Origin: an uncultured Candidatus Saccharibacteria bacterium
GTDB taxonomy: Bacteria; Patescibacteriota; Minisyncoccia; UBA6257; 2-01-FULL-56-20
Direction of reading: 5' to 3'
Assembly (NCBI GenBank): GCA_965231155.1
Contig: OZ246418.1
Location: forward strand, 42,266 to 106,265
DNA length: 64,000 nt
Below, piece by piece: positions 1 through 12,993 of the stretch. The translations under genes and the position numbers were made by a program. Positions within the stretch are counted from its first letter, which is position 1, and every line of letters begins with the position of its first letter. The notes beneath the pieces are model-generated. The model worked only from the letters and a program-made list of their open reading frames with translations, was not told the DNA's origin and did not search any database.

Positions 1-274
1 AAACACACTTACTTTCGGAAAAATCTGGGAGGATTAAGATTTTAGCTTGATATCCACACCCCTCAGAGGCAATGGATAAATTCTCCAAGAGAGCACCGAG
101 GGCTACCCACGTTCCCCGATTTCTGTAATTCAAAATCGGATGATCCTTCTCAGGCAAGGCGAATATTTTCAATTTACTTTCCTTAAACTCAAATCGCCAT
201 GGCTGAGAGTTGCTTCCCGAGGGAGCATCCACGGCTATTTCGAGAATTTTTTTTATATCAGATACTGAGACCAT
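1..274 (-). CDS. Nitroreductase-family protein, N-terminal part only (gene continues beyond window start)
   Basis: Minus-strand translation from ATG at 272-274 gives MVSVSDIKKILEIAVDAPSGSNSQPWRFEF..., the classic nitroreductase/SagB-type N-terminal motif (SxSxxQPW). The ORF runs off the window edge. Confidence 0.55.
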   Translation of the reverse strand, partial: MVSVSDIKKILEIAVDAPSGSNSQPWRFEFKESKLKIFALPEKDHPILNYRNRGTWVALGALLENLSIASEGCGYQAKILILPDFSESKCV

Positions 275-295
275 TTTATCAGGCTCCAGTCTACC

Positions 296-2020
296 CTAAA
301 TTTTCCAGACGACATCATGGGCAAACTCCGCCATTTCTCGTTGACGATTTTTGATTTGTTCTTCTGTCCAGGAATCAATCTTCACGATCCTCTCAACGAG
401 TTCTTTGTTGATATGTAATTTTGATTGTTTGTACCACTCAACCTTCTTGATAAGCGATTGATTTCCCATTGAGCCATTAATTTTTTCAGAAATCAAAGTT
501 AAATTTCCTAAACTATCAACGTAGTCTTTGGTATCCTTCTTGAGCAATCCCCACTCAGTAGGGTCTTTTGGTAAGATATGCTCTATATTGACCTTAGAAA
601 AATTAATTACTTGTTCATCGCCGCCCTTAGCTCTCTCTATATTAGCCAGAATATAAACAACGAGAGCGTAGTTTTTATACTCAATATCCATAAACTTTTC
701 GATGAAGAATTCTCTATTAGGAACTTCTAGTCTGTTTTTAAACTCGCTGACTGCACTATTCACACCCGCAAGAATTCGCCCCTGGCTTCTAAGCTGTAAA
801 GATTCTTGAATTTTTCTGGCAGTCTGGAAATATAATTTCTCAACTCTATTTCCTGGTTGCTTGCAAACGGCAGAATAAACAAAATGATAATTCTCGATAG
901 TTTTAAATATTCCGCTCAAATCCATACCAATCTTCTCCCGATTTGCTAGTAAACATAATAAGAGAGGGAAGTTCTGTGTGATACCCATTACTTTAAGCCC
1001 TTGTAAGGCTTCAAATATTTTAGAACCACTCCTACGATCGCCAACTTCATCTTGCCAAACTTTAAGATTATCACTTGCTATTTTGAAATATAGATCGGAA
1101 GAATATTCTAGCTCCTTCAAGAAAGATTCTGGATCTGCAATATTCCTCTTTATTTCCCTGTAGAGATTTCTTTCTGAAACGAATGAGTACTTCGACAGCC
1201 AGTGATATCGAATGAATTTAGACACGCTCAGAGATTTTGCACTCTCGATATTGTTTTCAATATCAATCCAAGCCTCCTTTGCAGAATCAATACCTTCTTC
1301 TGTTCTATTGTGAATCTTGGAGAAAAGGTGATTTTTCAACAAGTCAGCAGCTGTTAGATCAGCTCCTCGAGCATTAACGGTTTCGAAGATAGAGTAAGCA
1401 TCATCGTCCCTATTGATCCTTATCCATATAATTCTAAGATTGGCAAGTTTTTTCTTGATCGAATCAAGGTAATTTATTTTCCTCACTCTTTCATCTATCT
1501 GTTCTAGCTCGTTGGATATTTGTTCTCTTAAGTATTCATAATTTTCTTTAACTCTCTTCTCTTCATTGCGCTTTGGACTGCTTGATAGAATTTGTGCATC
1601 TACAGACTGTATATTCTTTTCAAAAAACTTTACCAGGGTATCCCCGCATTTCAACCGATAAGTGGGTTCACCACTAATGGGATCTCTGAATTCTATTATG
1701 CTTGTCTGTGTCAGATCAGCCTTCTTCTCATCTTTTAATTCCCGATACAGATCTCTTAATACTGCGCTCAATATCGTAAAGGTAATTAAACGTTGCTGAC
1801 CATCAATGACCTCTATAAAGTTTTCCTTCTCTATAAACTCGTAATTAAAAACAAAGGAACCTAAAAAAGAGGTTTCTTCTTCTTTTAAATCATTCCAAAG
1901 ATCAGACACATGATCCTTAGTCCAAGAATATGGCCTCTGGTAGCGAGGAATTCTATATTTCTCTTTCCCAAAAAGTATATCTTGCAAACTCTTATCTTCT
2001 GCATCAAAGAAGTTTGACAT
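296..2020 (-). CDS. GmrSD-family DUF262/DUF1524 protein (type IV modification-dependent restriction endonuclease-like)
   Basis: N-terminal DGQQR motif (IDGQQRLITF) typical of DUF262 ParB-like NTPase domain; C-terminal NIEHILPK His-Me finger motif typical of DUF1524. Start placed at internal MSNFF (ORF-track start 2191 would overlap upstream gene by 100 nt). Confidence 0.7.
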   Translation of the reverse strand: MSNFFDAEDKSLQDILFGKEKYRIPRYQRPYSWTKDHVSDLWNDLKEEETSFLGSFVFNYEFIEKENFIEVIDGQQRLITFTILSAVLRDLYRELKDEKKADLTQTSIIEFRDPISGEPTYRLKCGDTLVKFFEKNIQSVDAQILSSSPKRNEEKRVKENYEYLREQISNELEQIDERVRKINYLDSIKKKLANLRIIWIRINRDDDAYSIFETVNARGADLTAADLLKNHLFSKIHNRTEEGIDSAKEAWIDIENNIESAKSLSVSKFIRYHWLSKYSFVSERNLYREIKRNIADPESFLKELEYSSDLYFKIASDNLKVWQDEVGDRRSGSKIFEALQGLKVMGITQNFPLLLCLLANREKIGMDLSGIFKTIENYHFVYSAVCKQPGNRVEKLYFQTARKIQESLQLRSQGRILAGVNSAVSEFKNRLEVPNREFFIEKFMDIEYKNYALVVYILANIERAKGGDEQVINFSKVNIEHILPKDPTEWGLLKKDTKDYVDSLGNLTLISEKINGSMGNQSLIKKVEWYKQSKLHINKELVERIVKIDSWTEEQIKNRQREMAEFAHDVVWKI

Positions 2021-2090
2021 GAGCTCAATTATATACTCTTTGAATAACAAATAACAACTTCCATCCCAATATGGAGGAAGGATACCCGAT

Positions 2091-3233
2091 CTAATCCTCA
2101 AGTCCAATAATCCCCAAAAAATTCCTCCTCTGTTCCTCTCTATCTTTTTCTGTCTCGGGCAAATGGTATTCAGGATCGAAAACTTCATCAAGATTCACTT
2201 CCATCTTCCCATTTTTCAGCTTTTCTCCAAGAGCTAGACGCTTCACCACATAAGCCACCGCCACGCCAGACAGAGTGGCGGCATCCCCTAGTTGTGGCCA
2301 AGAGTATAAAGTTCGGCCCACTTCTAAAAGCGACTGCTGCATCCGGGTCGTTACGAAGTGCTTCCCGGCGATTTTTGTCGCTAAACGAGGCAGTTCTTGC
2401 GGTGCCATCTTCTGAAACTCCTCCAACGTTAAATGACCGGCTACACCATTAAAGATTTCAAGATTCGGATCAAGATCGTATCGCTCAATATCGAAAATAA
2501 TATTGTCACCATTATCCGTAGCCATCACTACTGGGATACCGCGCTTCTTGGCCTCTATCCTCAATCTAATTTTTAGTTCTAAATTATCAAGCTCTTCAAC
2601 AAGTACATCTAAACCATCAAGAAATTCACCGATATTCTGATCCGTCACTCCCTCGGGATATACGCGTAGATCAGCATATGGATTCATCTGATACACCTGC
2701 TCAGTAACGACATCGCATTTATTCTTATTCACAAACGTAAAATCATACCGAAGACGATTTAAATTCGAACCAGAAATCACATCCGGATCAGCCAAGCGCA
2801 TGTGTTTTCCAGCACCCATCATAGCCAGGGTCAAAGCAGCGTGACTGCCCACACTCAAGCCGGCAACTCCAATCTTGAATTCATAAAACTTCTTTTGTTC
2901 TTCGGCGAGAATGATATTCCGGTTGCGCGCTGTTCGGAGCTCTTGATGCATCTCTTCTGGTAGATAATGCACAATAATTTTGTTCCAAGGAAAATAGAAC
3001 CAAACACCTAATTGTTCTAAGGGCCTACCCGCCGATTGTTCTGCTAAAAAGATTTCGAAATCAGCCTGATAGTCTTTATCAAACTTAAAACGAGGATTCC
3101 TAATCAAAAACAGTTCCTCGAGAAGTTCCCTGTATGCATCGAAAACCTGAGAAACTTCGTGAGATTTCCTAAATTGCTCCAGCGACTGTTCTTCTATGTT
3201 GATAATAATTGGCTTCATGCTTTTTCTACCCAT
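2091..3233 (-). CDS. ThiF/MoeB/E1-like adenylyltransferase with ~110-aa N-terminal extension
   Basis: Rossmann GxGxxG-like motif IGVAGLSVGSHAALTLAMMGAG followed by DPDVISGSNLNRL (E1 family signature D-x-D-x-V-x-x-S-N-L-N-R). The N-terminal extension resembles the architecture of MccB-type peptide-adenylating E1s (inference). Confidence 0.7.
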   Translation of the reverse strand: MGRKSMKPIIINIEEQSLEQFRKSHEVSQVFDAYRELLEELFLIRNPRFKFDKDYQADFEIFLAEQSAGRPLEQLGVWFYFPWNKIIVHYLPEEMHQELRTARNRNIILAEEQKKFYEFKIGVAGLSVGSHAALTLAMMGAGKHMRLADPDVISGSNLNRLRYDFTFVNKNKCDVVTEQVYQMNPYADLRVYPEGVTDQNIGEFLDGLDVLVEELDNLELKIRLRIEAKKRGIPVVMATDNGDNIIFDIERYDLDPNLEIFNGVAGHLTLEEFQKMAPQELPRLATKIAGKHFVTTRMQQSLLEVGRTLYSWPQLGDAATLSGVAVAYVVKRLALGEKLKNGKMEVNLDEVFDPEYHLPETEKDREEQRRNFLGIIGLED

Positions 3234-4732
3234 TTTTGTTTAATACCTGGCTTGAAATAACGACTATGTTCGGCTGGCCAGAAAACGAGATGAGGCAAGG
3301 CCCGCTCTCCAACATGTCGATATAACTCTCTGAACTCCGAGTTCTTATCTTTCATATCTTCAATAATAACCGTTAGAATCTTCTTCTCAAGTTGCTTAGT
3401 TAGCTTCTTCCCAGGTCGAAGTTCTAAGTTGAGTTCCCAGTACTGATCTTGCGAACGATCAAAACGAGTGAACATAGTCAACTTGCCTGTTAAATATTGA
3501 TTGATGGATTTCCTCAGTAATGCCTCTTTTACCACCTCCGGATATATCTGTAATCCATATATGGTGATAGAAAAATCCATCCGCTCATAGATATACACAA
3601 ACGGAAGTTTCTGCAGGTGATCACTAATCTTCGCCTTTTTTGCCTCTTTCTCGAAATCAATGCCATGAATTTTGAACTTGTCCATTATCTCACTAAACTC
3701 ATAGATTCCCCCATGATCTCCAATAGAATATCTGACCAATGGCACCGCACTATCACCAGTCAGCAAAATTTCTCCATTAGGAGCTTCAAACTTGATAAAT
3801 AGTGGATTGTACTGAGCAAGTGTCGGAGTCTTCTTTATTTTCGAAAAAATATCTTCAAAGACATTCCTCTCCTTCAGAGCGAGACGACGGATGAGGATGG
3901 AGGTTGGAGTTTCGTATCCCATTGTCCCAATATCGGCAGATCCATAAATATTCAACGTATCAAAATATGGGTCTTTCACATGAGCCTTCTTGGCCACATA
4001 GTCACGAAAATTCTCAGTAAAAGCCTCGGCTGCAAAAAGCAGTCTGAGATTTAGTTTCTTCAGATTCATCCCAGAAGCCTCTGCCTCATCGAGAACATCT
4101 TTAATAAACGGTGGGTAACCAACGAGTACTGTTTGATGGAATGAAGGCGACAGGCGACGCAAAGCCTTAATAATCTCCGCCTTATTGATACCTGTGGTAA
4201 TAATGGAAACTGGATAGTTTCCTCGCTGACTAGCCAGCTCGAATGCTTTGTATGTGATGAGTCCGGCAATCCAGACACCCATACCAAAACCCACAATCAC
4301 CAGTGTCGACTTATTCATTCTTTCTGAAGTTGCCTTCAGAAAGAATTCATGGAAGATAGAAGACTCCCAATCCAAATCATTGGAACGCAAGAAATAAAAA
4401 GGCTCCCCAGTTGAACCTGATGTCGATGTAAAAACAAATGGTTTATTAAGAGAGCCATCCCAGCACAATTTCTGAAGAGGATACTGCTGGAGATAGTTCT
4501 TCTTGCTTACAGGAGGAATATACTGAAAATCTTTGAAATGCTTGATCTTCTCGGGAGAAACTTTATGACGCTTCAAGAAGTCCTTATACGCAGGTACTCG
4601 TCGAGCCGCTTGATGGAATAAAGAAAGCGCCTTCTCTTCTCCTTGCTTCTTCCAAAATAACTCACCCTTATTTTCTAAAAAAGAGACAATCTGCTGAGCA
4701 GAGTACTCAGTCATATCGACCAATTGTACCAC
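3215..4732 (-). CDS. PaaK/CapK-like (phenylacetate-CoA ligase / F390 synthetase family) adenylate-forming enzyme
   Basis: FVFTSTSGSTGEPFYF P-loop-like adenylation motif (cf. SSGTTGKP of PaaK) and downstream YGSADIGTMGYE. Overlaps the E1-like gene by 19 nt, which suggests translational coupling. Confidence 0.6.
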   Translation of the reverse strand: MVQLVDMTEYSAQQIVSFLENKGELFWKKQGEEKALSLFHQAARRVPAYKDFLKRHKVSPEKIKHFKDFQYIPPVSKKNYLQQYPLQKLCWDGSLNKPFVFTSTSGSTGEPFYFLRSNDLDWESSIFHEFFLKATSERMNKSTLVIVGFGMGVWIAGLITYKAFELASQRGNYPVSIITTGINKAEIIKALRRLSPSFHQTVLVGYPPFIKDVLDEAEASGMNLKKLNLRLLFAAEAFTENFRDYVAKKAHVKDPYFDTLNIYGSADIGTMGYETPTSILIRRLALKERNVFEDIFSKIKKTPTLAQYNPLFIKFEAPNGEILLTGDSAVPLVRYSIGDHGGIYEFSEIMDKFKIHGIDFEKEAKKAKISDHLQKLPFVYIYERMDFSITIYGLQIYPEVVKEALLRKSINQYLTGKLTMFTRFDRSQDQYWELNLELRPGKKLTKQLEKKILTVIIEDMKDKNSEFRELYRHVGERALPHLVFWPAEHSRYFKPGIKQKWVEKA

Positions 4733-4758
4733 AACTCATAAGATTGGTAAGCAGGAAT

Positions 4759-5496
4759 CTATATCCTACTAGAATCAACCAGGAAAGGCTTGAGTATAAT
4801 AGGGCTCGAAAGAAAGGCTAAGAAAATTAAGCCCACTACTCCGATTATCAGATCCAAGCCGTATAAGTGATCACCTCTTGATTCTGAATACAATAAAACA
4901 AATCTCAAAAATACATCAAAAAAACCAAGCAAACCACCAACAACAAGAAATCTAGATAGAATTTTTACTTCACGAGTTTTCCCCTTCTGAGCAAGCTGAG
5001 AAAAAATGTAGATGAAAGATCCTATACTGGCAGCTAGAAGTAGAAAAGTTAATAGGGATACCCTATAGCTAATGTCCCAGTAGAGGCCGCCCTCCGGAGT
5101 TATTACTCCCCGAGGCGCAAAGATTAGGGTAACTAGAATTAATAAAAATCCTAATAAGCCGGTCGCTATCGGACCAAAGTGAAAAGGAAATCTGGGGAAA
5201 AAGATATAATAAACTGAATAAACTCCGAGAGTTGCATGTAACACTAGAGCTACATTCGTGAGAAGCAATACATAAAAAAGACCGACCTGACTGCCGGAGA
5301 AAAGTAATGAACCAAAGCCTAGAATCCCATTTTGTAAGGCTGATAAAAAAATGAATACGCTAATGACCAAACCGATATAACTACTTTGTTGGTTCTCGGT
5401 GGATCTACGGAAAGCTTGGAAGAACCAAAAACTACAAATACTTAAACCAACAAAAAGGAGGGTGAAGGCAATCGATGTAGAGGTGATAACCATCAA
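4759..5496 (-). CDS. Polytopic membrane protein, unknown function (first gene of the E1/PaaK operon)
   Basis: 245 aa dominated by hydrophobic helices (at least 6 predicted TM segments). No recognisable motif. Confidence 0.4.
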   Translation of the reverse strand: MMVITSTSIAFTLLFVGLSICSFWFFQAFRRSTENQQSSYIGLVISVFIFLSALQNGILGFGSLLFSGSQVGLFYVLLLTNVALVLHATLGVYSVYYIFFPRFPFHFGPIATGLLGFLLILVTLIFAPRGVITPEGGLYWDISYRVSLLTFLLLAASIGSFIYIFSQLAQKGKTREVKILSRFLVVGGLLGFFDVFLRFVLLYSESRGDHLYGLDLIIGVVGLIFLAFLSSPIILKPFLVDSSRI

Positions 5497-5512
5497 AGGT
5501 TTCTATGGTTTA

Positions 5513-6295
5513 CTACGCTCCGCCGAATGCAACGGAACCAGAACCAAAGAATGGCTTCTTGTGTGCTTTTTTAGCGTCCTCCCAAGAAAGATCAAAAGCT
5601 TTTTTCAGGGCTTCGGCCATCTCCTGACTCTCAATCACTAACGCGAATTTGTTAACTGGCGACATAAACACAATCTTATTGTCATAGACGCTAATCTCTG
5701 GAGAAACTTTTAATGGAGCGCTATCTTTACTAACTTTCGCGAACTCATGCATGGTCGCCGTCTCTGGAAACAACATCTTCACTTTGACATTTTTCTTGGC
5801 GAGACGATCGTAGTATTTTTCTGGGACAGTTCCTCCTTCATCTTTCGCGGCATAGGCACGAATTGTTTCCAGTGAGCTCAGCGCATCTTCATACACCGTT
5901 TTCATTCCTTCGACGCCTTCGAAGAGTTGTACCTTAGGCATCAAGGAGTTCTCCTTGCCGGCTTCGAGTTTCAGTTTTGGCAAAAGTTCTCGAGCCACAC
6001 TGGCCAGTTCGGTATATTCTTTAGCGCTCCCTTCGAGATACTGGACGAGTTGTTCGGGAGAAATCGAATTGTAGACCTTCACGCCACGTCGTTCGGTAAT
6101 GCTCACCAATCCACGCTTTGATAGGGCGTCTAAAATAACATAGGTGGTGCTACGATTGATGCCCGCTTTTTTGGAGATATCGCTCACAATCGAGGAACCA
6201 AGCTTTAAAAGCGCGGTATAGACCTCCGCTTCTTTCTCGGAAAAACCTGCTTTTCGCAAAACGCCGTCGAGGTTCATAGTGTTCTTATTATACAA
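5513..6295 (-). CDS. TrmB-family transcriptional regulator
   Basis: N-terminal winged HTH: LRKAGFSEKEAEVYTALLKLGSSIVSDISKKAGINRSTTYVILDALSKRGLV, characteristic of TrmB/sugar-specific regulators. Confidence 0.7.
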   Translation of the reverse strand: MYNKNTMNLDGVLRKAGFSEKEAEVYTALLKLGSSIVSDISKKAGINRSTTYVILDALSKRGLVSITERRGVKVYNSISPEQLVQYLEGSAKEYTELASVARELLPKLKLEAGKENSLMPKVQLFEGVEGMKTVYEDALSSLETIRAYAAKDEGGTVPEKYYDRLAKKNVKVKMLFPETATMHEFAKVSKDSAPLKVSPEISVYDNKIVFMSPVNKFALVIESQEMAEALKKAFDLSWEDAKKAHKKPFFGSGSVAFGGA

Positions 6296-6303
6296 TAACT
6301 AAA

Positions 6304-6327
6304 TTTATAATTGTTAATAATTATAAA
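6304..6327. promoter_or_regulatory. AT-rich inverted repeat (TTTATAATT-N6-AATTATAAA) immediately upstream of TrmB-family gene start; candidate operator/promoter element
   Basis: Perfect 9-bp inverted repeat seen directly in sequence, 9-30 nt upstream of the minus-strand start codon at 6295. Confidence 0.25.
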
Positions 6328-6375
6328 CAACAATAATAAACCTGTCAACAAGGGGACACCCGAGTCCAGAAAAGA

Positions 6376-6804
6376 CTATCCCCTGGCCTCGTCTAAGGCC
6401 TTATTGACCATCCGATCAGCAGCTTTATTCAGCTCTCGGGGAATGTGTTTGAACGTCACGCTCTTAAAGTCTAGTCGCAAGTTCCAGATCTGCATAAAAT
6501 AGGGCTGGAGTTTCTCATCTTCGATTTTATAAATTGCATTCATCTGCTTCACGATCAACTCACTATCCATTCTGACTTCAACATCTGTTTGTTTTGCTTT
6601 TGTTTTCCCAAGAAGTGCCTTGGCTTTCTTTAACGCGAAAACCAATGCCAAGTACTCAGCTTGGTTATTCGTCATAATTCCTAAGTACTCTCCGTATTCT
6701 TTTCCACCAACTACCGCGCCCAAAGCCGCTGGCCCAGGATTACCTCGCGATCCCCCATCGGTATAGATAAGAAATTTATTTTCTGTTGGAAAAAGTGAAC
6801 TCAT
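6376..6804 (-). CDS. rnhA: Ribonuclease HI
   Basis: FLIYTDGGSRGNPGPAALGAVV ... TNNQAEYLALVFALKKA: canonical RNase H catalytic D/E/D motifs. Confidence 0.85.
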   Translation of the reverse strand: MSSLFPTENKFLIYTDGGSRGNPGPAALGAVVGGKEYGEYLGIMTNNQAEYLALVFALKKAKALLGKTKAKQTDVEVRMDSELIVKQMNAIYKIEDEKLQPYFMQIWNLRLDFKSVTFKHIPRELNKAADRMVNKALDEARG

Positions 6805-7376
6805 TTGCCAATTAATCGTAAGAAAACCTGATATGTTGTCCGTGCATCATCAATCGCCCGGTGCGCTCGGCCACGATCAACACCAAAATAATTTGCTAAC
6901 TCTCGCAAAGAAAACCTCACTAACGACGGATCGTCCCGCAACTGCAACCAGGCCAACGCAAACGTATCTAGCGGTTTATAAAAATAGTTTCCTTCCAGGT
7001 CGTGATCCCAAAGTGCTTTTTCGAGATGAAGCATATCAACAGAAACATTGTGGCCAACAAGGATCGCGTCCTTGGTGTACCGCAGAAACTCTTCAAGCCC
7101 GGCCTTCATCTCTACTCCTTCCCGCTTCCACTCCTCCTCGTCGTAACCACTAATCTCTAAACCACTCGGATCAGCGTTCTCGATATGCTCTGGTTTAAGC
7201 TTAATGTCTCTCTCATTCAGAATCTCAAAACTACCGGCCTTGGCCTTAACAAGACCAATCTCGGTGATCTCGTGATCAAATCGAAGACCAGTAAACTCAC
7301 AATCAAAAAACACCAAATCGCGATCATGGATGAGGGGCTCGTATTCTGGCTGGATGATATCAGTTTCTTCTGGCAT
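6801..7376 (-). CDS. DEDDh 3'-5' exonuclease (DNA polymerase III epsilon/DnaQ-like)
   Basis: Exo I FFDCEFTGL, Exo II GHNVSVDMLHL, Exo III HRAIDDARTT motifs. Start set at MPEETD to avoid 100-nt overlap with the upstream paralog. Confidence 0.75.
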   Translation of the reverse strand: MPEETDIIQPEYEPLIHDRDLVFFDCEFTGLRFDHEITEIGLVKAKAGSFEILNERDIKLKPEHIENADPSGLEISGYDEEEWKREGVEMKAGLEEFLRYTKDAILVGHNVSVDMLHLEKALWDHDLEGNYFYKPLDTFALAWLQLRDDPSLVRFSLRELANYFGVDRGRAHRAIDDARTTYQVFLRLIGK

Positions 7377-7380
7377 AGAA

Positions 7381-9162
7381 TTAGGCAACTTCCGCCTGGT
7401 AGCACGCTTCGCAGTATACAATCTCCGGTCGATCAGGGCTATAGGAGGTCTGAAAAACATTAGAACACTGCGCTTCTCCATGAGGATGCACTGCCAAATT
7501 AAGATACACTCCTCCGTCTGAACACTTCCCGGAACACTGACAAGTCCGTGGCCATAGTTTAATCGGATTTCTTTCGGCTAAGCGTTCGTAGTGTCGACAG
7601 TTCGAACAGAGATGAGGAGCTGGTATATTCATCTGCCGATAAAACGCCAACTCAGTAGGAATAATCTTAAATACCGTTCCGCACTGATGATTGCACTGAC
7701 CTGCGTGTTCACATGAGACTGTCTGTTCGAGAATAGAGTCATCAATCTCGGTAATAGTATTCGGGAGGTTCTTTGATTGGACGGTTGCTTGGTAGTTTTT
7801 CTCTGTTGCTCCCTTCCACTTCACAGAACCGAGTTTGGCCTGCTCCTGGCTTAATGGTCGCAACTCCTGAGCCACTGTTTCGTTGTACGCAAAAGGAGAA
7901 ATCTGCGCAGGGAAAAACTCTCCGTACTTATACATACGACCACCCTGATCTACATACGGCATCGTATTCATGTGTTCGATAATCTTCGGAACCAGAGCTT
8001 CATACTCCTCTTTTGAGTATTGTTTATTCAAAATACAGTACTGTTTATTCCGTAACCCAACACACCCAAAAAGATAGGAGGAGTTGTGGCAGTTGTATGA
8101 GTACTGTACGTTGTGGCAGTTAAAAATAAATCGAGAGAAAACGGACTTGCTGCCTGGATAGATTGTCGAAATCTCATACGAGAGTTCTGATTTCAAACCA
8201 AAGTGATCACAATCAACACAATCCTTCACACTCGAATAGGCCAACCATAAATAACGGCAATCTTCGGCACCACCAAAAACATCGAACGTCATAAAACAAT
8301 TCTTGGTCTCCTCGAGATTATCACCGAGAGAGTTGATCCCTCTTAATATCCGCGCAAATTTTCGAGGATACTTCTGGGCATGGAGCTTAAACTCGGCTTT
8401 CAGTTTTTGAACAGCCTCATAGTTTCCTAAATCGAACTCCTTGATCTTCTTTTCATACTCCTCCTTTGAATACTGAACATTAAAAATGCAGTAGGATTGA
8501 TTCGAAAGATTGACGCACCCAAAACAATCATGGCAGTTTCTACAGTTCAGAAGAAAAGCAGAATTATAACAACCCTCACAGTACCGACTATAGAGAAGTT
8601 TCGAGCAGTTAATACAGTCGATCGTACTGTAGTTCCATTCACATTTCGTATCCCAGTAACAGTCGGAACATTCTTTACTCTGAAAAATAAATGCAGAGTA
8701 GTTTGTATTTTCATTAAAATCGCCACCAATAACCAAATAACAATTCTTGTTCCCTTCAGTAATGCTGCAATAGTCACTATTCACTGGATTAATATTTAGA
8801 AGGGCTATATCAGGAACCTCTCCCCAAAGTTCCTGTAGTTGAGTAAAAAATGGACGATTGAAATCGTACTCCCTAAAAAAAGTAGCGGCATCCCAAGAAT
8901 CGCTCCACCACTCCTTGTGATCGTACACTTTCTGAGAGTTGTCAGGAGAAAAAATTGAAATCACTTCCTCGGTGTGACCTGGAGCATCACATTTTCTTCG
9001 GTAGAGCGTCCTTTCATTACGGAAAGTCATTCGACGCACAAGCCGACACTCAAAACAGAAGGTTGGCGGAGGCACATCCATCTTCTTATAGAACTCGAAA
9101 TCAGCCGATTCAATCGTGAACGACTGTTTGCAGTTCTGACAGTTTTTAGTCTCTGAGTTCAT
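7381..9162 (-). CDS. Cysteine-rich ~590-aa protein, paralog 1 of 3 (zinc-ribbon-like N- and C-terminal modules, internally repeated Cys-rich core)
   Basis: N-terminal CQNCKQSF-I-DFEFYKKMDVPPPTFCFECR...RN.R.LY.RKC and matching C-terminal module (CNHQCGTVF-I-ELAFYRQMNIPAPHLCSNCR...RNP..L..R.C). The core has two copies of C..C..C..S..L.NC.NC.DCFGCV.L.N..YCI.N.QYSKEEYE. More than 35 Cys residues. Confidence 0.6.
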   Translation of the reverse strand: MNSETKNCQNCKQSFTIESADFEFYKKMDVPPPTFCFECRLVRRMTFRNERTLYRRKCDAPGHTEEVISIFSPDNSQKVYDHKEWWSDSWDAATFFREYDFNRPFFTQLQELWGEVPDIALLNINPVNSDYCSITEGNKNCYLVIGGDFNENTNYSAFIFQSKECSDCYWDTKCEWNYSTIDCINCSKLLYSRYCEGCYNSAFLLNCRNCHDCFGCVNLSNQSYCIFNVQYSKEEYEKKIKEFDLGNYEAVQKLKAEFKLHAQKYPRKFARILRGINSLGDNLEETKNCFMTFDVFGGAEDCRYLWLAYSSVKDCVDCDHFGLKSELSYEISTIYPGSKSVFSRFIFNCHNVQYSYNCHNSSYLFGCVGLRNKQYCILNKQYSKEEYEALVPKIIEHMNTMPYVDQGGRMYKYGEFFPAQISPFAYNETVAQELRPLSQEQAKLGSVKWKGATEKNYQATVQSKNLPNTITEIDDSILEQTVSCEHAGQCNHQCGTVFKIIPTELAFYRQMNIPAPHLCSNCRHYERLAERNPIKLWPRTCQCSGKCSDGGVYLNLAVHPHGEAQCSNVFQTSYSPDRPEIVYCEACYQAEVA

Positions 9163-10952
9163 GTAACTTCGCTATTATAGCATTGCTCACAGTAGATAAT
9201 CTCGGGGCGATCTGGCGCGTAAGAAGTCTGGAAAGTGTTCAGACATTGGGCATCTCCGTGAAAATGAGGCGAGGTATTCGCGAAGGCACCGTTTGAAGAC
9301 CAGGAGCCACTACACTGACACTGTCGTGAATAAAGCGCCAATGGATTTCTCCAGCTGATCCGGTCCACATGACGACAGTTAAAACAAAGTCGTGGCAGCG
9401 GTAGTTGCATCTGACGATAAAATGCGAGTTCTTCAGGCGTGATACGAAAAGCCGTAGTGCAGTTAGAACCACACATACCAGAGTGATTATTTATTTCATC
9501 GTGCATGCAATGAATAATCTCTTTCACTATCGAGTCATCCACCCCGGAAATAGTTTCAGGTAGGTCTTTTGATTCTTTCGTTATCTGATACTCTCTTTTT
9601 TTAGAAGCTTGCCAGCGATAGCCTTGTTCTTCGACTTCTTTTTGTGTGAGGGGAAAATATTCTTGCCCCTGGCTTTCGTTATATCCTATGGGATTTATAT
9701 CGAGCGGAAAAAACTCGCCATACTTATACGTTCTTCCTTTCGAATCGACGTAGGGCATCTCACTCATATGCTTGATAATTCTCGGCACAAGCTCTTCGTA
9801 TTCTTCTTTAGAATACTGCTTATTAAGAACGCAGTACTGCTTACTTTTTAAGCCAACAGAACCAAAGACGTTGCTCACACTTTTGCAGTCCATGATATAC
9901 TGGGAGTCTGTTGCCGTCTCACAGTTCACAGTAAAAAAAGATCGATGAAGACCAAGTCCCGAACAGGAAGTTTCATAAGCAAGCTCCGCATCAACTCCAG
10001 TTGATGTTATATCCATGCAGTCCTTGATAGGGTCAAAGATGATACTCTGGGAGTATGCGCAATTTTGAGCTTCGTTTGCAAAATAACAGTTCTTGAGCTC
10101 GGAGGAGTTATAAATGTAATCCCCCTTACACCCCGCATCCTTTACGCCATGTCGGAAACGAACCGGATTTTTTATCCAAAACTCTTCCGCTTGTTTTCGA
10201 GCTTGATGTACTCCCTCTCGAGATTTCAAGTCGAACTCCTCTAGCTTCTTAACATACCCTTCTTTTGAATAAGGCTGGTTGAAAATATAATAATTTTTAT
10301 TTCGAAGACCACTGCAACCAAAACAGTTAGAACAACCAACACAATCCTGACTCAGCCACACATCACTGCACGAGTTACAGTTTCGGGAATAGAAAGTCTT
10401 ATAGCATTGCGTAAGGTTGATAGAGTAGTAACAAAGCTCTGAATATTTGGTATTAATGGTATCAAAGCAGTTCTTTGCCTTCTGCAAAGTCACGTTATAG
10501 GCACTATCCTCACACTCACCTGAATCAAAACACATATACGAGTTTTTCATGTCTAATCCTTGACCATACTCGCTATTCACACTGTTCGTATTAAATACGC
10601 TCATCGTCGGAACTTTGAAGTAGAGCTCTTTAAACTGCGCAAAAAATGGTCGAGAAAAATCATAGTCAACGCCATATTCTAAAGAATCCCACGCATCACT
10701 GATCCAGTACTGCCGATCATAGACAGGCATCGGCGCGTCCTCGGGAATTAGTGAGAATATTTTTTTACCAGTGGCGTCACACACACGTTCATGCAATGTG
10801 CGCATATTCCGAAATGACATTCGTCGCATCGCGCGGCACCGCCAACACCAGGTCGGCGGTGGAACCTCAATTTTCTTATAGAAATCAAAATCGGCGGGTT
10901 CGATTACAAAATCTAATTTGCAATTCTGACAGCTGCGTGTTTCTAAGTTCAT
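9159..10952 (-). CDS. Cysteine-rich ~597-aa protein, paralog 2 of 3
   Basis: Same architecture as 7381-9162 (MNLETRSCQNCKLDFVIEPADFDFYKKIEVPPPTWCWRCR...). Shares a 4-nt ATGA start/stop overlap with paralog 1. Confidence 0.6.
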   Translation of the reverse strand: MNLETRSCQNCKLDFVIEPADFDFYKKIEVPPPTWCWRCRAMRRMSFRNMRTLHERVCDATGKKIFSLIPEDAPMPVYDRQYWISDAWDSLEYGVDYDFSRPFFAQFKELYFKVPTMSVFNTNSVNSEYGQGLDMKNSYMCFDSGECEDSAYNVTLQKAKNCFDTINTKYSELCYYSINLTQCYKTFYSRNCNSCSDVWLSQDCVGCSNCFGCSGLRNKNYYIFNQPYSKEGYVKKLEEFDLKSREGVHQARKQAEEFWIKNPVRFRHGVKDAGCKGDYIYNSSELKNCYFANEAQNCAYSQSIIFDPIKDCMDITSTGVDAELAYETSCSGLGLHRSFFTVNCETATDSQYIMDCKSVSNVFGSVGLKSKQYCVLNKQYSKEEYEELVPRIIKHMSEMPYVDSKGRTYKYGEFFPLDINPIGYNESQGQEYFPLTQKEVEEQGYRWQASKKREYQITKESKDLPETISGVDDSIVKEIIHCMHDEINNHSGMCGSNCTTAFRITPEELAFYRQMQLPLPRLCFNCRHVDRISWRNPLALYSRQCQCSGSWSSNGAFANTSPHFHGDAQCLNTFQTSYAPDRPEIIYCEQCYNSEVT

Positions 10953-11220: not shown

Positions 11221-12993
11221 TTATACGATTTCGGCATTATAACACTGCTCGCAATACACTATCTCTGGGCGATCTGGGGTGTAGGTCGTTTCAAATTTAT
11301 TCAGGCATCGTCCACCGACATGAGAGGTGTGCTCTTTAGAATTCCTAAAAACTTTGCCATCACATACGCACTGACGACTACAAAGCTTGAATTTATTCCG
11401 CTCTCCAAGACGCTCGTAGTGGCGGCAATTGACGCATAGTTCAGGAATGGGGACACCAAGCTTCTTTAACAATTGAAGCTCTGGAGCGATTAGACGAAAT
11501 ACCTTGGTGCATTGATGATTACAAACTCCTTCATGTCGACACTGAATCAGTTCCTGAAGAATACCCTGGTCCACCTCTTGGATTGATGTAGGGATCTGTG
11601 AAAACTTCATCGTAAAAGTATTCGACTTATCCTTTGCCTCACGCCATATATATCCTCTCTTAACCGCCTCCTCCTTATCTAACGGAAAATATTCTTGAGC
11701 GATGGTTTCGTTGTAGGCAAAAAAAGACATCTCCATAGGGAAAAATTCACCGTAACGATATTCTTTCTTGTGTGAATCAACATATGGCATAGCCATCATA
11801 TGTTCTTTGATCTTTGGCAGAATAGCTTCATATTCTTCTTTGGAATACTGCTTATTCAGAATGCAGTACTGTTTATTCCGAATACCTACGGACCCAAAAC
11901 AATGCGGAGAATTTCGCACAAAATAACAATACTGAGTATCGTAGCTTTCCCAAACATTACCGCAAAAAGCGACATTATGAACCTTAAGTCCGGTATCCAT
12001 AATGTCGTAACTTGATTCAACGAGACCTACGGCGTAAGCGTCATAGAGATCTCTCATCTCAGTCACACCATAGACTAGAAAGCGCGAGTTCTCAGCAGGA
12101 CCTTCCACATCGAAACAATCCTTACAGTCTTTCACGCCATTCAGGTAATCTCCAGTAGAGTTGACGGCTCGACGAGAGTTAGAGAACTTTCTAGGCCGAG
12201 TAAGTAATAATTCTCGGAAACGCTTCTCCACGATAGCCCGACCTGTTTTAGTGTCTAGACGAAGTTCTTTAACTTTTTCCTTGTATTCTTCAGGAGAAAA
12301 CTGCTGATTGAAAATTGAATGTTTGGCGTTTCTTAACCCTACACAACCAATACAATCCTGAGAATTACGGCAGTCATAGCAATATTTTGAATTGATACAT
12401 CCCTCAGAAAGAATGAGGTGATCACTCTCGTAGCAAGCCTCCGAATCAACCAGTTGGTAACAGTGTTCATTTTTCCTAGAACCAAGCATATCAAAACAAT
12501 CTTTGTTTTCGATTGAGTGGTAGAGATACGCCGTGTCTTCGTTCATGTCACTCGCAAAATTCAGATAGCAGTTTTTTGATTCATAGGTAAAGTTGCAATA
12601 ATCGCTTTGAACATCGCTAATGTTAATGAGTGAGATAAGCGGGACTGAGTTTAGAAGCTCTTTCCATTGCTCAAAAAAAGGCCTCGAGAAATCATACTCA
12701 CGCCCATACTGCATAGGATCCCACTCGTCGCTCCACCAGTATTTTGTATCGTATACAGGAATAGCGAGCTCTGGCGGATACATAGTAATAATGGATTCCC
12801 CATGACCCGGAGCATCACATTTTCGCTTATAGAGATTCCTCTCATTCCTCCAGGTTAAACGGCGCATCAAACGACAGTCCGGACAAAAAGTCGGTGGTGG
12901 CACCTGCATTTTTTTGTAGAAATCAAAATCGACTGACTCTATCGTAAATTCTTGTTTACAGTTCTGACAGTTTTTTACTTCTTTTTCGGCCAT
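11221..12993 (-). CDS. Cysteine-rich ~590-aa protein, paralog 3 of 3
   Basis: MAEKEVKNCQNCKQEFTIESVDFDFYKKMQVPPPTFCPDCR... Colinear with paralogs 1 and 2 throughout. Confidence 0.6.
   Translation of the reverse strand: MAEKEVKNCQNCKQEFTIESVDFDFYKKMQVPPPTFCPDCRLMRRLTWRNERNLYKRKCDAPGHGESIITMYPPELAIPVYDTKYWWSDEWDPMQYGREYDFSRPFFEQWKELLNSVPLISLINISDVQSDYCNFTYESKNCYLNFASDMNEDTAYLYHSIENKDCFDMLGSRKNEHCYQLVDSEACYESDHLILSEGCINSKYCYDCRNSQDCIGCVGLRNAKHSIFNQQFSPEEYKEKVKELRLDTKTGRAIVEKRFRELLLTRPRKFSNSRRAVNSTGDYLNGVKDCKDCFDVEGPAENSRFLVYGVTEMRDLYDAYAVGLVESSYDIMDTGLKVHNVAFCGNVWESYDTQYCYFVRNSPHCFGSVGIRNKQYCILNKQYSKEEYEAILPKIKEHMMAMPYVDSHKKEYRYGEFFPMEMSFFAYNETIAQEYFPLDKEEAVKRGYIWREAKDKSNTFTMKFSQIPTSIQEVDQGILQELIQCRHEGVCNHQCTKVFRLIAPELQLLKKLGVPIPELCVNCRHYERLGERNKFKLCSRQCVCDGKVFRNSKEHTSHVGGRCLNKFETTYTPDRPEIVYCEQCYNAEIV

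Follow-up and report, generated by a model that had tools for sequence, protein, structure and literature searches.

Which product could be made by a locus that encodes, on one strand and in close vicinity, a PaaK-like adenylate-forming enzyme, a ThiF/E1-like enzyme and a nitroreductase-fold oxidase? This question is raised by the first part of a 64,000-nucleotide stretch of contig OZ246418.1 (positions 42,266 to 106,265; assembly GCA_965231155.1) from an uncultured Candidatus Saccharibacteria bacterium. The whole stretch is called the window in the following; coordinates refer to its numbering unless another contig is named, and the genes of the window described here lie on its minus strand. 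A preliminary description of this DNA had suggested a peptide or small-molecule modification pathway, possibly one related to thiazole/oxazole-modified microcins (TOMM) or other peptides made on the ribosome and modified after translation (RiPPs). The general idea of a modification pathway survived, since in almost all of the 80 related loci the genes of the three enzymes lie together on the same strand, overlapping or a few bases apart, whereas the specific parts concerning RiPPs, the peptide adenylator MccB and a neighbouring membrane protein did not. We propose, with a probability of roughly 0.6, that the three genes belong together with a histidine kinase gene to a four-gene cassette found across the Patescibacteria, which represents a new form of the oxazolone pathway with an ATP-dependent ligase in place of the N-acyl amino acid synthase.

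The cyclase and the oxidase as predicted halves of one TrzS-type enzyme

The mycobacterial enzyme TrzS, which is identical to Rv1355c, catalyzes an ATP-dependent cyclisation and then the O2- and flavin mononucleotide (FMN)-dependent desaturation of N-acyl tryptophan to N-acyl tryptazolone, and it acts on N-acyl amino acids, not on peptides (PMC12856293). The E1-like protein of the window, called the cyclase below, matches the NCBIfam model NF005901 ('Rv1355c family') with 306 bits and an E-value of 4.3e-91; the alignment spans positions 23-348 of the 722 in the profile and includes the N-terminal extension of the protein. Because the Pfam ThiF domain (6.6e-23) covers only residues 103-238 of the open reading frame (ORF) of 380 amino acids (aa), this extension of approximately 100 aa is real; it had been estimated before at about 110 aa. 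The oxidase gene, correctly recognized before as a nitroreductase-family gene at the window edge, runs off the window start, and the fragment inside the window gives a Pfam Nitroreductase match of 9.2e-6. Its complete sequence is available from three contigs of the same genome (L001-L003), which encode a database protein identical to the cyclase (P0001) and extend the locus past the window start. The full 355-aa oxidase (L001 12945-14012) matches positions 377-713 of NF005901 with 150 bits, the model NF011424 (PRK14851) with 172 bits and NF047509, the model for Acg-family FMN oxidoreductases, with 121 bits. Because the cyclase and the oxidase match the N- and the C-terminal half of the same Rv1355c model, the window is predicted to carry a split TrzS-type enzyme and not a TOMM pair.

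This assignment is in line with the situation in four related loci (L013, L061, L065 and L078), in which cyclase and oxidase are fused into a single protein of 731-743 aa. The fused orthologs match NF005901 from end to end, with 452.5 bits in L061, 450.6 bits in L013 and 534.2 bits in L078, where 476 bits is the cut-off set by the curators. If the scores of the split pair are simply added, 306 + 150 = 456 bits result. Judged by these scores, the Patescibacterial family would be placed at the boundary of the curated model.

The oxidase had been regarded as SagB-like. This did not hold, because the complete protein matches only the Rv1355c-type, PRK14851/14852 and Acg models, without a SagB-domain match at E <= 0.01. 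The solved structure nearest to it is Acg (2YMV), the same protein that was reported as the nearest solved oxidase relative of TrzS (PMC12856293). Across 64 orthologs, the motif APSxxNxQPW and several Arg residues are invariant; R113, R117 and R329 are among the conserved Arg residues of the oxidase. In 10 loci (L007, L014, L028, L032, L034, L035, L048, L053, L055 and L064), a second, shorter oxidase paralog of approximately 304-342 aa is encoded between the first oxidase and the kinase gene.

Among 20 orthologs of the cyclase, the Gly-rich loop, a DxD motif, the stretch SNLNR, one Lys residue and the Asp of an ExxDN motif are invariant. The latter is residue D211 in the numbering of P0001 and is presumed, without an alignment, to be the counterpart of Asp217, which is needed for TrzS activity. 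None of the invariant residues is a Cys; the protein contains a single, non-conserved Cys and no CxxC pairs. The presence of the adenylation residues together with the lack of an invariant Cys fits a direct adenylation and cyclisation without a thioester. An AlphaFold2 model of the cyclase has a mean confidence (pLDDT) of 85.5. Its nearest solved folds are AclA (9egb), PaaA, MoeB, ThiF, MccB and TcdA, all of which align with the Rossmann core only, with template modelling (TM) scores normalized to the query of 0.41-0.55. MccB and PaaA superpose on this core with TM scores of about 0.44 (MccB 0.43-0.45), and those MccB alignments that reach the N-terminus of the cyclase (approximately 350 columns) show a root-mean-square deviation of at least 12 Å. 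The extension itself is modelled with high confidence as a compact α/β domain with the order β-α-β-α-α-β-β-α, which we take to differ from the element order of a RiPP recognition element. In the model, it does not behave like the clamp of an MccB-type peptide adenylator, which had been considered before, and it is common to the Rv1355c/TrzS family. The closest solved structure, AclA from Tenacibaculum discolor (9egb/9egc), is a 2025 entry entitled 'AclA in complex with substrate'. Our literature search found nothing relevant on the function of AclA 9egb; should AclA turn out to cyclize a small molecule, it could help to understand how the cyclase studied here works.

A four-gene cassette in Patescibacteria

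One genome per species was scanned, and 296 stretches that encode a relative were found. Eighty loci were fetched and compared by BLAST mapping and all-against-all clustering of ORFs, with a flank of 8-10 kb on each side. They carry labels such as Liptonbacteria, Wolfebacteria, Kaiserbacteria, Lloydbacteria, Paceibacterota, Magasanikbacteria, Doudnabacteria and others, and a few records bear other submitter labels. The cyclase gave 2250 homologous matches, of which the top 120 are 56-72% identical, and the PaaK-like protein 2608 matches with 55-66% identity; in both cases they belong to the Patescibacteria group where the source names an organism.

The dominant gene order, always on one strand, is PaaK-like ligase, cyclase, oxidase and a histidine kinase with a seven-transmembrane (7TM) sensor region. 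The ligase is found in 75 loci (median identity to the window protein 54%), the cluster of ThiF-like cyclase and oxidase in 82 loci (median identity 56% for the cyclase and 37% for the oxidase) and the kinase in 73 loci (median 40%), while any other gene family reaches at most 25 loci. In the relatives, the median gaps between the four genes amount to only 13, 6 and 7 nucleotides (nt). The oxidase gene adjoins the cyclase gene in about 75 related loci, and the gap between these two normally measures 2-11 nt (interquartile range). The linkage is kept where the flanking genes differ and also where the PaaK-like gene is displaced by a few kb. In our genome, the kinase gene follows the oxidase gene with an overlap of 17 nt on L001-L003 and encodes a 542-aa protein with the domains HisKA_7TM, HisKA and HATPase_c. 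According to 62 orthologs, the 7TM region of the kinase is as conserved as its catalytic core.

The gene directly upstream of the PaaK-like gene is visible in 66 loci, and in 38 of these it encodes a dehydrogenase or an aminotransferase: 23 belong to the Glu/Leu/Phe/Val-dehydrogenase family and 15 are class I/II aminotransferases resembling HisC or phenylalanine aminotransferases. A CheY-like receiver takes this place in four further loci. The solved structures nearest to the dehydrogenase are leucine dehydrogenases (LeuDH; 246 bits), followed by tryptophan dehydrogenase (207 bits) and phenylalanine dehydrogenase (126 bits). The LeuDH-like and HisC-like enzymes both interconvert a hydrophobic or aromatic amino acid and the corresponding 2-oxo acid. 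A tryptophan-specific reading was also considered, because ScyB is the best NCBIfam match of the upstream dehydrogenase and a tryptophanyl-tRNA synthetase gene lies downstream in some loci. It was rejected, since the dehydrogenase is nearer to leucine dehydrogenases, and the tRNA synthetase neighbour looks like plain synteny. Homologs of the dehydrogenase, aminotransferase or receiver were not found in the 64-kb window.

Other recurrent neighbours are genes for GrpE-DnaK-DnaJ, tryptophanyl-tRNA synthetase, an Asp/Asn/Lys-type tRNA synthetase, arginyl-tRNA synthetase, dihydroorotate dehydrogenase, ScpA/B, a D-Ala-D-Ala carboxypeptidase, L25, an ABC exporter and ApbE. None of the recurrent neighbours of the 80 loci is an N-acyl amino acid synthase (OxzA, TyzA, TrzA or NasY); the remaining parts of the genomes were not searched. 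Of the clusters present in at least nine loci, all could be assigned to other proteins except for those left as small membrane proteins, and no cluster of conserved small ORFs was found across the 80 loci. In approximately seven loci, the gene of the ApbE-family flavin transferase immediately precedes the PaaK-like gene or the dehydrogenase/aminotransferase gene (cluster c19; for example L022 4483-5226 and L048 1102-1890), which may be relevant to flavinylation or reflect plain synteny. In two to three loci, radical S-adenosylmethionine (SAM)/SPASM genes precede the cassette closely on its upstream side, with the opposite orientation (L029 5245-6360, minus strand; L073 with two copies upstream of the PaaK-like gene). 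They are the sole RiPP-like element near any copy of the cassette and are not conserved.

The PaaK-like ligase

The PaaK-like protein has no Pfam match and shows only weak NCBIfam similarity to PaaK, F390 synthetase and related ligases; the best of these matches, to the PaaK model TIGR02155, reaches 6.2e-13 and 48 bits at a cut-off of 646.3 bits. The fold of its AlphaFold2 model (pLDDT 83.6) matches PaaK1/2, BT_0428, 2-hydroxyisobutyryl-CoA ligase and ClxA. A Foldseek search with this model returned E-values of 1.9e-19 for PaaK1 (2y27) and 2e-13 for ClxA, which also has the PaaK fold and whose structure was solved with an aromatic acid and the adenylate of this acid. The stretches TSGSTGxP, YGSA, GD, ERxD and a C-terminal GxK are invariant among 20 orthologs and can be read as the putative core motifs of an adenylate-forming enzyme. 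No paa genes were found near the cassette among the called genes of the contigs of this genome and of the related loci. The protein thus shares the fold of PaaK without being its ortholog. PaaK-fold ligases that build a heterocycle precursor without the classical paa pathway do exist, as in the case of NatL2 of benzoxazole biosynthesis.

Proposed pathway and comparison with known systems

From the conserved linkage and the fold, we infer that the PaaK-like enzyme would start the pathway by adenylating a carboxylic acid and coupling this acid, directly or via a thioester, to a hydrophobic or aromatic amino acid at its amino group. The resulting N-acyl amino acid would thereby be made without the acyl-CoA-dependent synthase, which the PaaK-like enzyme would replace. 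In many relatives, the LeuDH-like or HisC-like enzyme could interconvert the amino acid and the 2-oxo acid and feed one of the two building blocks. By homology, the cyclase would then adenylate the free carboxylate of the N-acyl amino acid, whereupon ring closure through the amide oxygen gives a 5(4H)-oxazolone, and the Acg-like flavin-dependent oxidase would desaturate the Cα/Cβ bond. An oxazolone of the alkylidene or arylidene type is expected as product or, if this is hydrolysed, an N-acyl dehydro-amino acid. Oxazolones do not withstand acids or alcohols (PMC12856293). The last and weakest step is suggested by the operon structure only: the 7TM kinase may sense the product or control the operon. 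The roles of cyclase and oxidase are taken from homologs, that of the ligase from gene context and fold and that of the kinase from gene context.

A further-reaching version, which we regard as rather doubtful, treats the cassette as a self-contained module for signal synthesis and sensing, in which ligase, cyclase and oxidase make a diffusible oxazolone or dehydro-amino-acid signal and the co-translated 7TM kinase acts as its receptor. To this version belong, with the same reservation, an amino acid or 2-oxo acid source that is scavenged, a CoA-independent route to the N-acyl amino acid and a circuit of ultra-small, host-dependent bacteria that resembles quorum sensing or serves to sense a host. 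The organization can be compared to agrBDCA and comCDE, where biosynthetic genes and a membrane sensor kinase are likewise packed into one operon, and the CheY-like receiver that adjoins the cassette in some loci adds to the likeness. However, homology to these systems does not exist, and the comparison may hold for gene organization only. A signalling role was already suggested for mycobacterial oxazolone loci.

Enzymatic oxazolone formation by pairs that combine a ThiF-like cyclase with a flavin oxidase was first reported in 2020-2021. In addition to TrzS, the same chemistry is known for N-acyl tyrosine as substrate of TyzB/TyzC (PMC10404671) and of OxzB (bioRxiv 10.1101/2020.06.11.147165; reviewed in PMC12596934). 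The literature examined on oxazolone systems describes them from Proteobacteria, Actinomycetota and Planctomycetota, in every case together with an N-acyl amino acid synthase. As far as we found, it mentions neither a form from Patescibacteria nor a partner of the PaaK type nor a 7TM kinase linked to the enzymes. The four-gene form of the Patescibacteria hence appears to be undescribed. The greatest similarity exists to TrzAS of M. tuberculosis and M. smegmatis, which shares the sequence of N-terminal extension, ThiF-like cyclase and Acg-like oxidase (positions 23-713 of the Rv1355c model), and one of the fused Patescibacterial orthologs exceeds the cut-off of that model. In contrast to TrzAS, cyclase and oxidase are encoded here by two separate genes, as in most Paceibacteria-type loci, with a further gene between them in this genome, a PaaK-like enzyme stands in place of the TrzA-type N-acyltransferase, and a 7TM kinase is added. 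Moreover, the host is an ultra-small Patescibacterium, whereas TrzAS belongs to mycolic-acid actinobacteria. Separate adjacent genes for the ThiF-like protein and the oxidase are also found with TyzB and TyzC of the M. tuberculosis tyrazolone locus TyzACB, and a cyclase-oxidase fusion with OxzB of Pseudoalteromonas rubra. In TyzACB and OxzAB, however, the synthase TyzA or OxzA (FeeM/acyl-homoserine lactone synthase fold, using acyl-CoA) is always paired with the other enzymes, unlike the situation among the recurrent neighbours here. Among curated models the cyclase is closest to Rv1355c. With regard to the ligase, ClxA (9s3l/9s45) has the same fold and a similar proposed role, namely to adenylate a carboxylic acid and transfer it to a nucleophile before a ring-closing enzyme acts. 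Its identity to the Patescibacterial family, which has no Pfam match, is only about 15%, and direct amide formation by this family is a proposal.

If the proposed pathway is correct, it is of interest for several reasons. The cassette is kept in a few hundred species-level genomes of Patescibacteria, that is, in organisms with very little biosynthetic capacity. The different acyl-activating enzyme could reveal a new ATP-driven route to the N-acyl amino acid precursor. The linked sensor kinase provides a handle on what oxazolones do, a question that is still open for the known products (PMC12856293). Finally, the assignment corrects labels such as 'ThiF/MoeB', 'tRNA t6A dehydratase' (t6A, threonylcarbamoyladenosine) and 'phenylacetate-CoA ligase' on thousands of metagenomic proteins.

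Weighing of the proposed pathway and of alternatives

Several observations speak against an oxazolone pathway or limit its certainty. All chemistry is deduced from homologs with family-level similarity only. The summed score of the split pair stays just below the curated cut-off (456 versus 476 bits). The PaaK-like protein is very divergent (no Pfam match, 48 versus 646 bits). An N-acyl amino acid synthase could be encoded elsewhere in the genomes, as 8-10 kb of flanking sequence per side were examined, and the present genome has no dehydrogenase or aminotransferase neighbour, neither at the cassette nor in the 64-kb window. Furthermore, many Patescibacteria live in anoxic groundwater, whereas the known oxidases use O2, so that a different electron acceptor or a different reaction is possible. 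With 54-56% identity across two classes, ligase and cyclase are strongly conserved for enzymes of secondary metabolism, which might mean a core cellular role instead, and part of the conservation of gene order could be inherited synteny.

The most probable alternative assumes that the enzymes act on a substrate other than a free N-acyl amino acid, such as the C-terminus of a peptide or protein or an envelope precursor, and that the cassette is a core physiological system of Patescibacteria instead of a pathway for a secondary metabolite or signal. Such a role would explain the unusually high conservation in many reduced genomes, and it would suit the location of the cassette among housekeeping genes (GrpE-DnaK-DnaJ, tRNA synthetases, ScpAB) as well as the missing recurrence of the usual N-acyl amino acid synthase; chemically, any N-acylated C-terminal residue should be able to form an oxazolone. 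Nevertheless, we consider it unlikely, since the cassette contains no conserved gene for a candidate protein or peptide substrate, the combination of a PaaK-fold ligase with an enzyme for amino acids and 2-oxo acids fits the assembly of a small molecule better, and the closest characterized relatives all use small N-acyl amino acids (PMC12856293, PMC10404671).

Less probable still is the view that mere synteny accounts for the presence of the PaaK-like gene, of the kinase gene or of both, with cyclase and oxidase as the sole functional unit and the acyl-amino acid coming from elsewhere in the cell or from a host. Housekeeping synteny of the flanks does exist within sub-lineages, and the examined flanks leave space for a distant synthase. 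In addition, Patescibacteria scavenge many metabolites. However, the PaaK-like gene and the kinase gene are kept in far more loci than any flanking family (75 and 73 versus at most 25), start and stop codons of the cassette genes overlap or are a few nt apart, and the linkage survived local rearrangements in seven loci (L004, L012, L015, L026, L037, L039 and L048).

A function of the E1-like protein in sulfur-carrier or tRNA chemistry, either as ThiF/MoeB-type activator of a ThiS/MoaD-like protein or as a TcdA-like t6A dehydratase with unrelated neighbours, is very improbable. It derives from significant sub-threshold matches to the ThiF, MoeB and TcdA models, from TcdA structures among the fold matches and from source annotations that name some orthologs 'tRNA threonylcarbamoyladenosine dehydratase'; the chemistry of TcdA is also close, as this enzyme forms an oxazolone ring (PMC12596934). 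The scores for ThiF, MoeB, MoeZ and TcdA nevertheless remain far below the respective cut-offs, with 75 of 159 bits for PRK08644, the best ThiF-type model, and 34 of 304 bits for TcdA, as compared to the 306 bits for the Rv1355c family. A ubiquitin-like gene of the ThiS/MoaD type, the partner that had been named as the sign of a plain ThiF/MoeB protein, was not found adjacent to the cyclase gene, the zinc-binding CxxC motif is missing from a protein with one non-conserved Cys, and the obligate linkage or fusion to a flavin oxidase is not a feature of ThiF, MoeB or TcdA.

In a TOMM/RiPP azoline pathway, the E1-like protein would serve as a docking or cyclodehydratase partner of the SagC/McbB kind, and the nitroreductase would be an azoline dehydrogenase of the SagB/McbC type that acts on a ribosomal peptide. 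This pathway can practically be dismissed, because, although ThiF-fold and nitroreductase-fold pairs occur in TOMM clusters and the RiPP-type enzymes PaaA and MccB are among the structural matches of the cyclase, these match the core only, the oxidase is of the Acg/TrzS type, the E1-like protein keeps all ATP-site residues unlike TOMM docking proteins, gaps of at most 26 nt leave no room for a precursor ORF, and a YcaO gene is absent, in agreement with what had been seen before for both YcaO and precursor, from the genes called in this genome up to a distance of approximately 10 kb from the E1-like gene in both directions and from the recurrent neighbours of the 80 loci.

Gene layout and lineage-specific genes in the present genome

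The genes of the window are compiled in Table 1. All ORFs that had been reported on the minus strand for the membrane protein, the PaaK-like enzyme and the E1-like enzyme do exist. They had been described as three overlapping genes, which is true for the stop codon of the PaaK-like gene and the start codon of the cyclase gene (ATGA), if the latter starts at 3218, and not for the membrane protein gene, which ends 26 nt before the PaaK-like gene. The start at 3218, the second Met of the longer ORF, matches the orthologs and the database protein P0001. For the PaaK-like protein, an alternative ATG start at 4714 would give 499 aa, as in the database protein P0121.

Table 1. Genes at the start of the 64-kb window.
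Feature	Coordinates	Strand	Evidence and remarks
TrmB-family helix-turn-helix regulator gene	5513-6295	-	Pfam TrmB 8.6e-18
Orphan membrane protein with eight transmembrane segments (8-TM protein), 245 aa	4759-5496	-	8 predicted transmembrane segments
PaaK-like adenylate-forming enzyme, 505 aa	3215-4732	-	Weak NCBIfam matches and PaaK fold; start GTG 4732
ThiF/E1-like cyclase, 375 aa	2091-3218	-	NF005901 and Pfam ThiF; longer ORF 2091-3233 (380 aa)
GmrSD-type (DUF262/DUF1524) type IV restriction/HEC-06-like gene, 574 aa	296-2020	-	Pfam and PADLOC; ORF 296-2191
Flavin-dependent oxidase (nitroreductase fold), first 91 codons only	1-274	-	Pfam Nitroreductase; continues past the window start

The operon does not abut the oxidase gene, as had been stated, since a complete gene for a GmrSD-type protein, missed in the preliminary description, lies between cyclase and oxidase genes. 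Both of its domains, DUF262 and DUF1524, are present (Pfam GmrSD_N 1.9e-37, GmrSD_C 1.1e-24), and it matches HEC-06 of PADLOC with 9e-105. Because the homology, including the HEC-06 alignment, begins only at about residue 58 of the ORF, the shorter gene is listed in Table 1. The gene was found only in L001-L003, that is in the same genome, and is absent from all 80 related loci. Its GC content of 0.36 differs from the 0.40-0.44 of the flanks; flanking repeats of the insertion were not found. A promoter-like site is located just upstream (2057..2028, minus strand), and its -10 box ends a few nt before the ATG, so that the transcript may be leaderless. The gene is a lineage-specific defence-gene insertion between the cyclase and oxidase genes and not a member of the pathway; it would have landed there together with its own promoter-like site. 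The insertion of 1.8 kb separates genes that are fused in some lineages. As cyclase and oxidase are both full length in this genome, it need not have inactivated the pathway, which may still be intact.

The 8-TM protein had been included among the pathway members. It matches no entry of Pfam, NCBIfam or PADLOC and has no homolog in the 80 related loci; a single other homolog, with 41% identity, was found among 5.8 billion proteins. Its gene fills the position that is usually held by the dehydrogenase or aminotransferase gene in the relatives. The protein is a lineage-specific orphan and not a conserved member of the cassette. Two possible functions were rejected: a stand-alone copy of the kinase sensor, since there is no similarity to the 7TM region of the kinase, and a conserved transporter of the system, since the protein is essentially an orphan.

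The TrmB gene heads the gene string in this genome, directly upstream of the 8-TM gene and on the same strand. It is preceded by a perfect consensus promoter (6348..6320, minus strand; TTGACA-17-TATAAT, 12 of 12 matches). The TrmB protein is a possible regulator, and the promoter a possible start of operon transcription in this genome. TrmB homologs (cluster c13) occur within 8 kb of the cassette in nine loci, a count that includes three copies of this genome. Several of the loci have them directly next to the cassette, either upstream of the PaaK-like gene or divergently oriented after the kinase gene. At the other end of the locus, the kinase gene is followed by a 97-aa ORF on the opposite strand and then by rpsL-rpsG-fusA.

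No RNA families were detected with Rfam in positions 1-8000 of the window. Further upstream of the TrmB gene, three tandem paralogous genes (7381-9162, 9159-10952 and 11221-12993, minus strand) encode cysteine-rich proteins of approximately 590 aa in which CxxC-like pairs are numerous. In L001, all three fall into a single cluster, and the first of them, the only one scanned, has no significant Pfam match. An 88-aa acylphosphatase is encoded between the second and the third of these paralogs.

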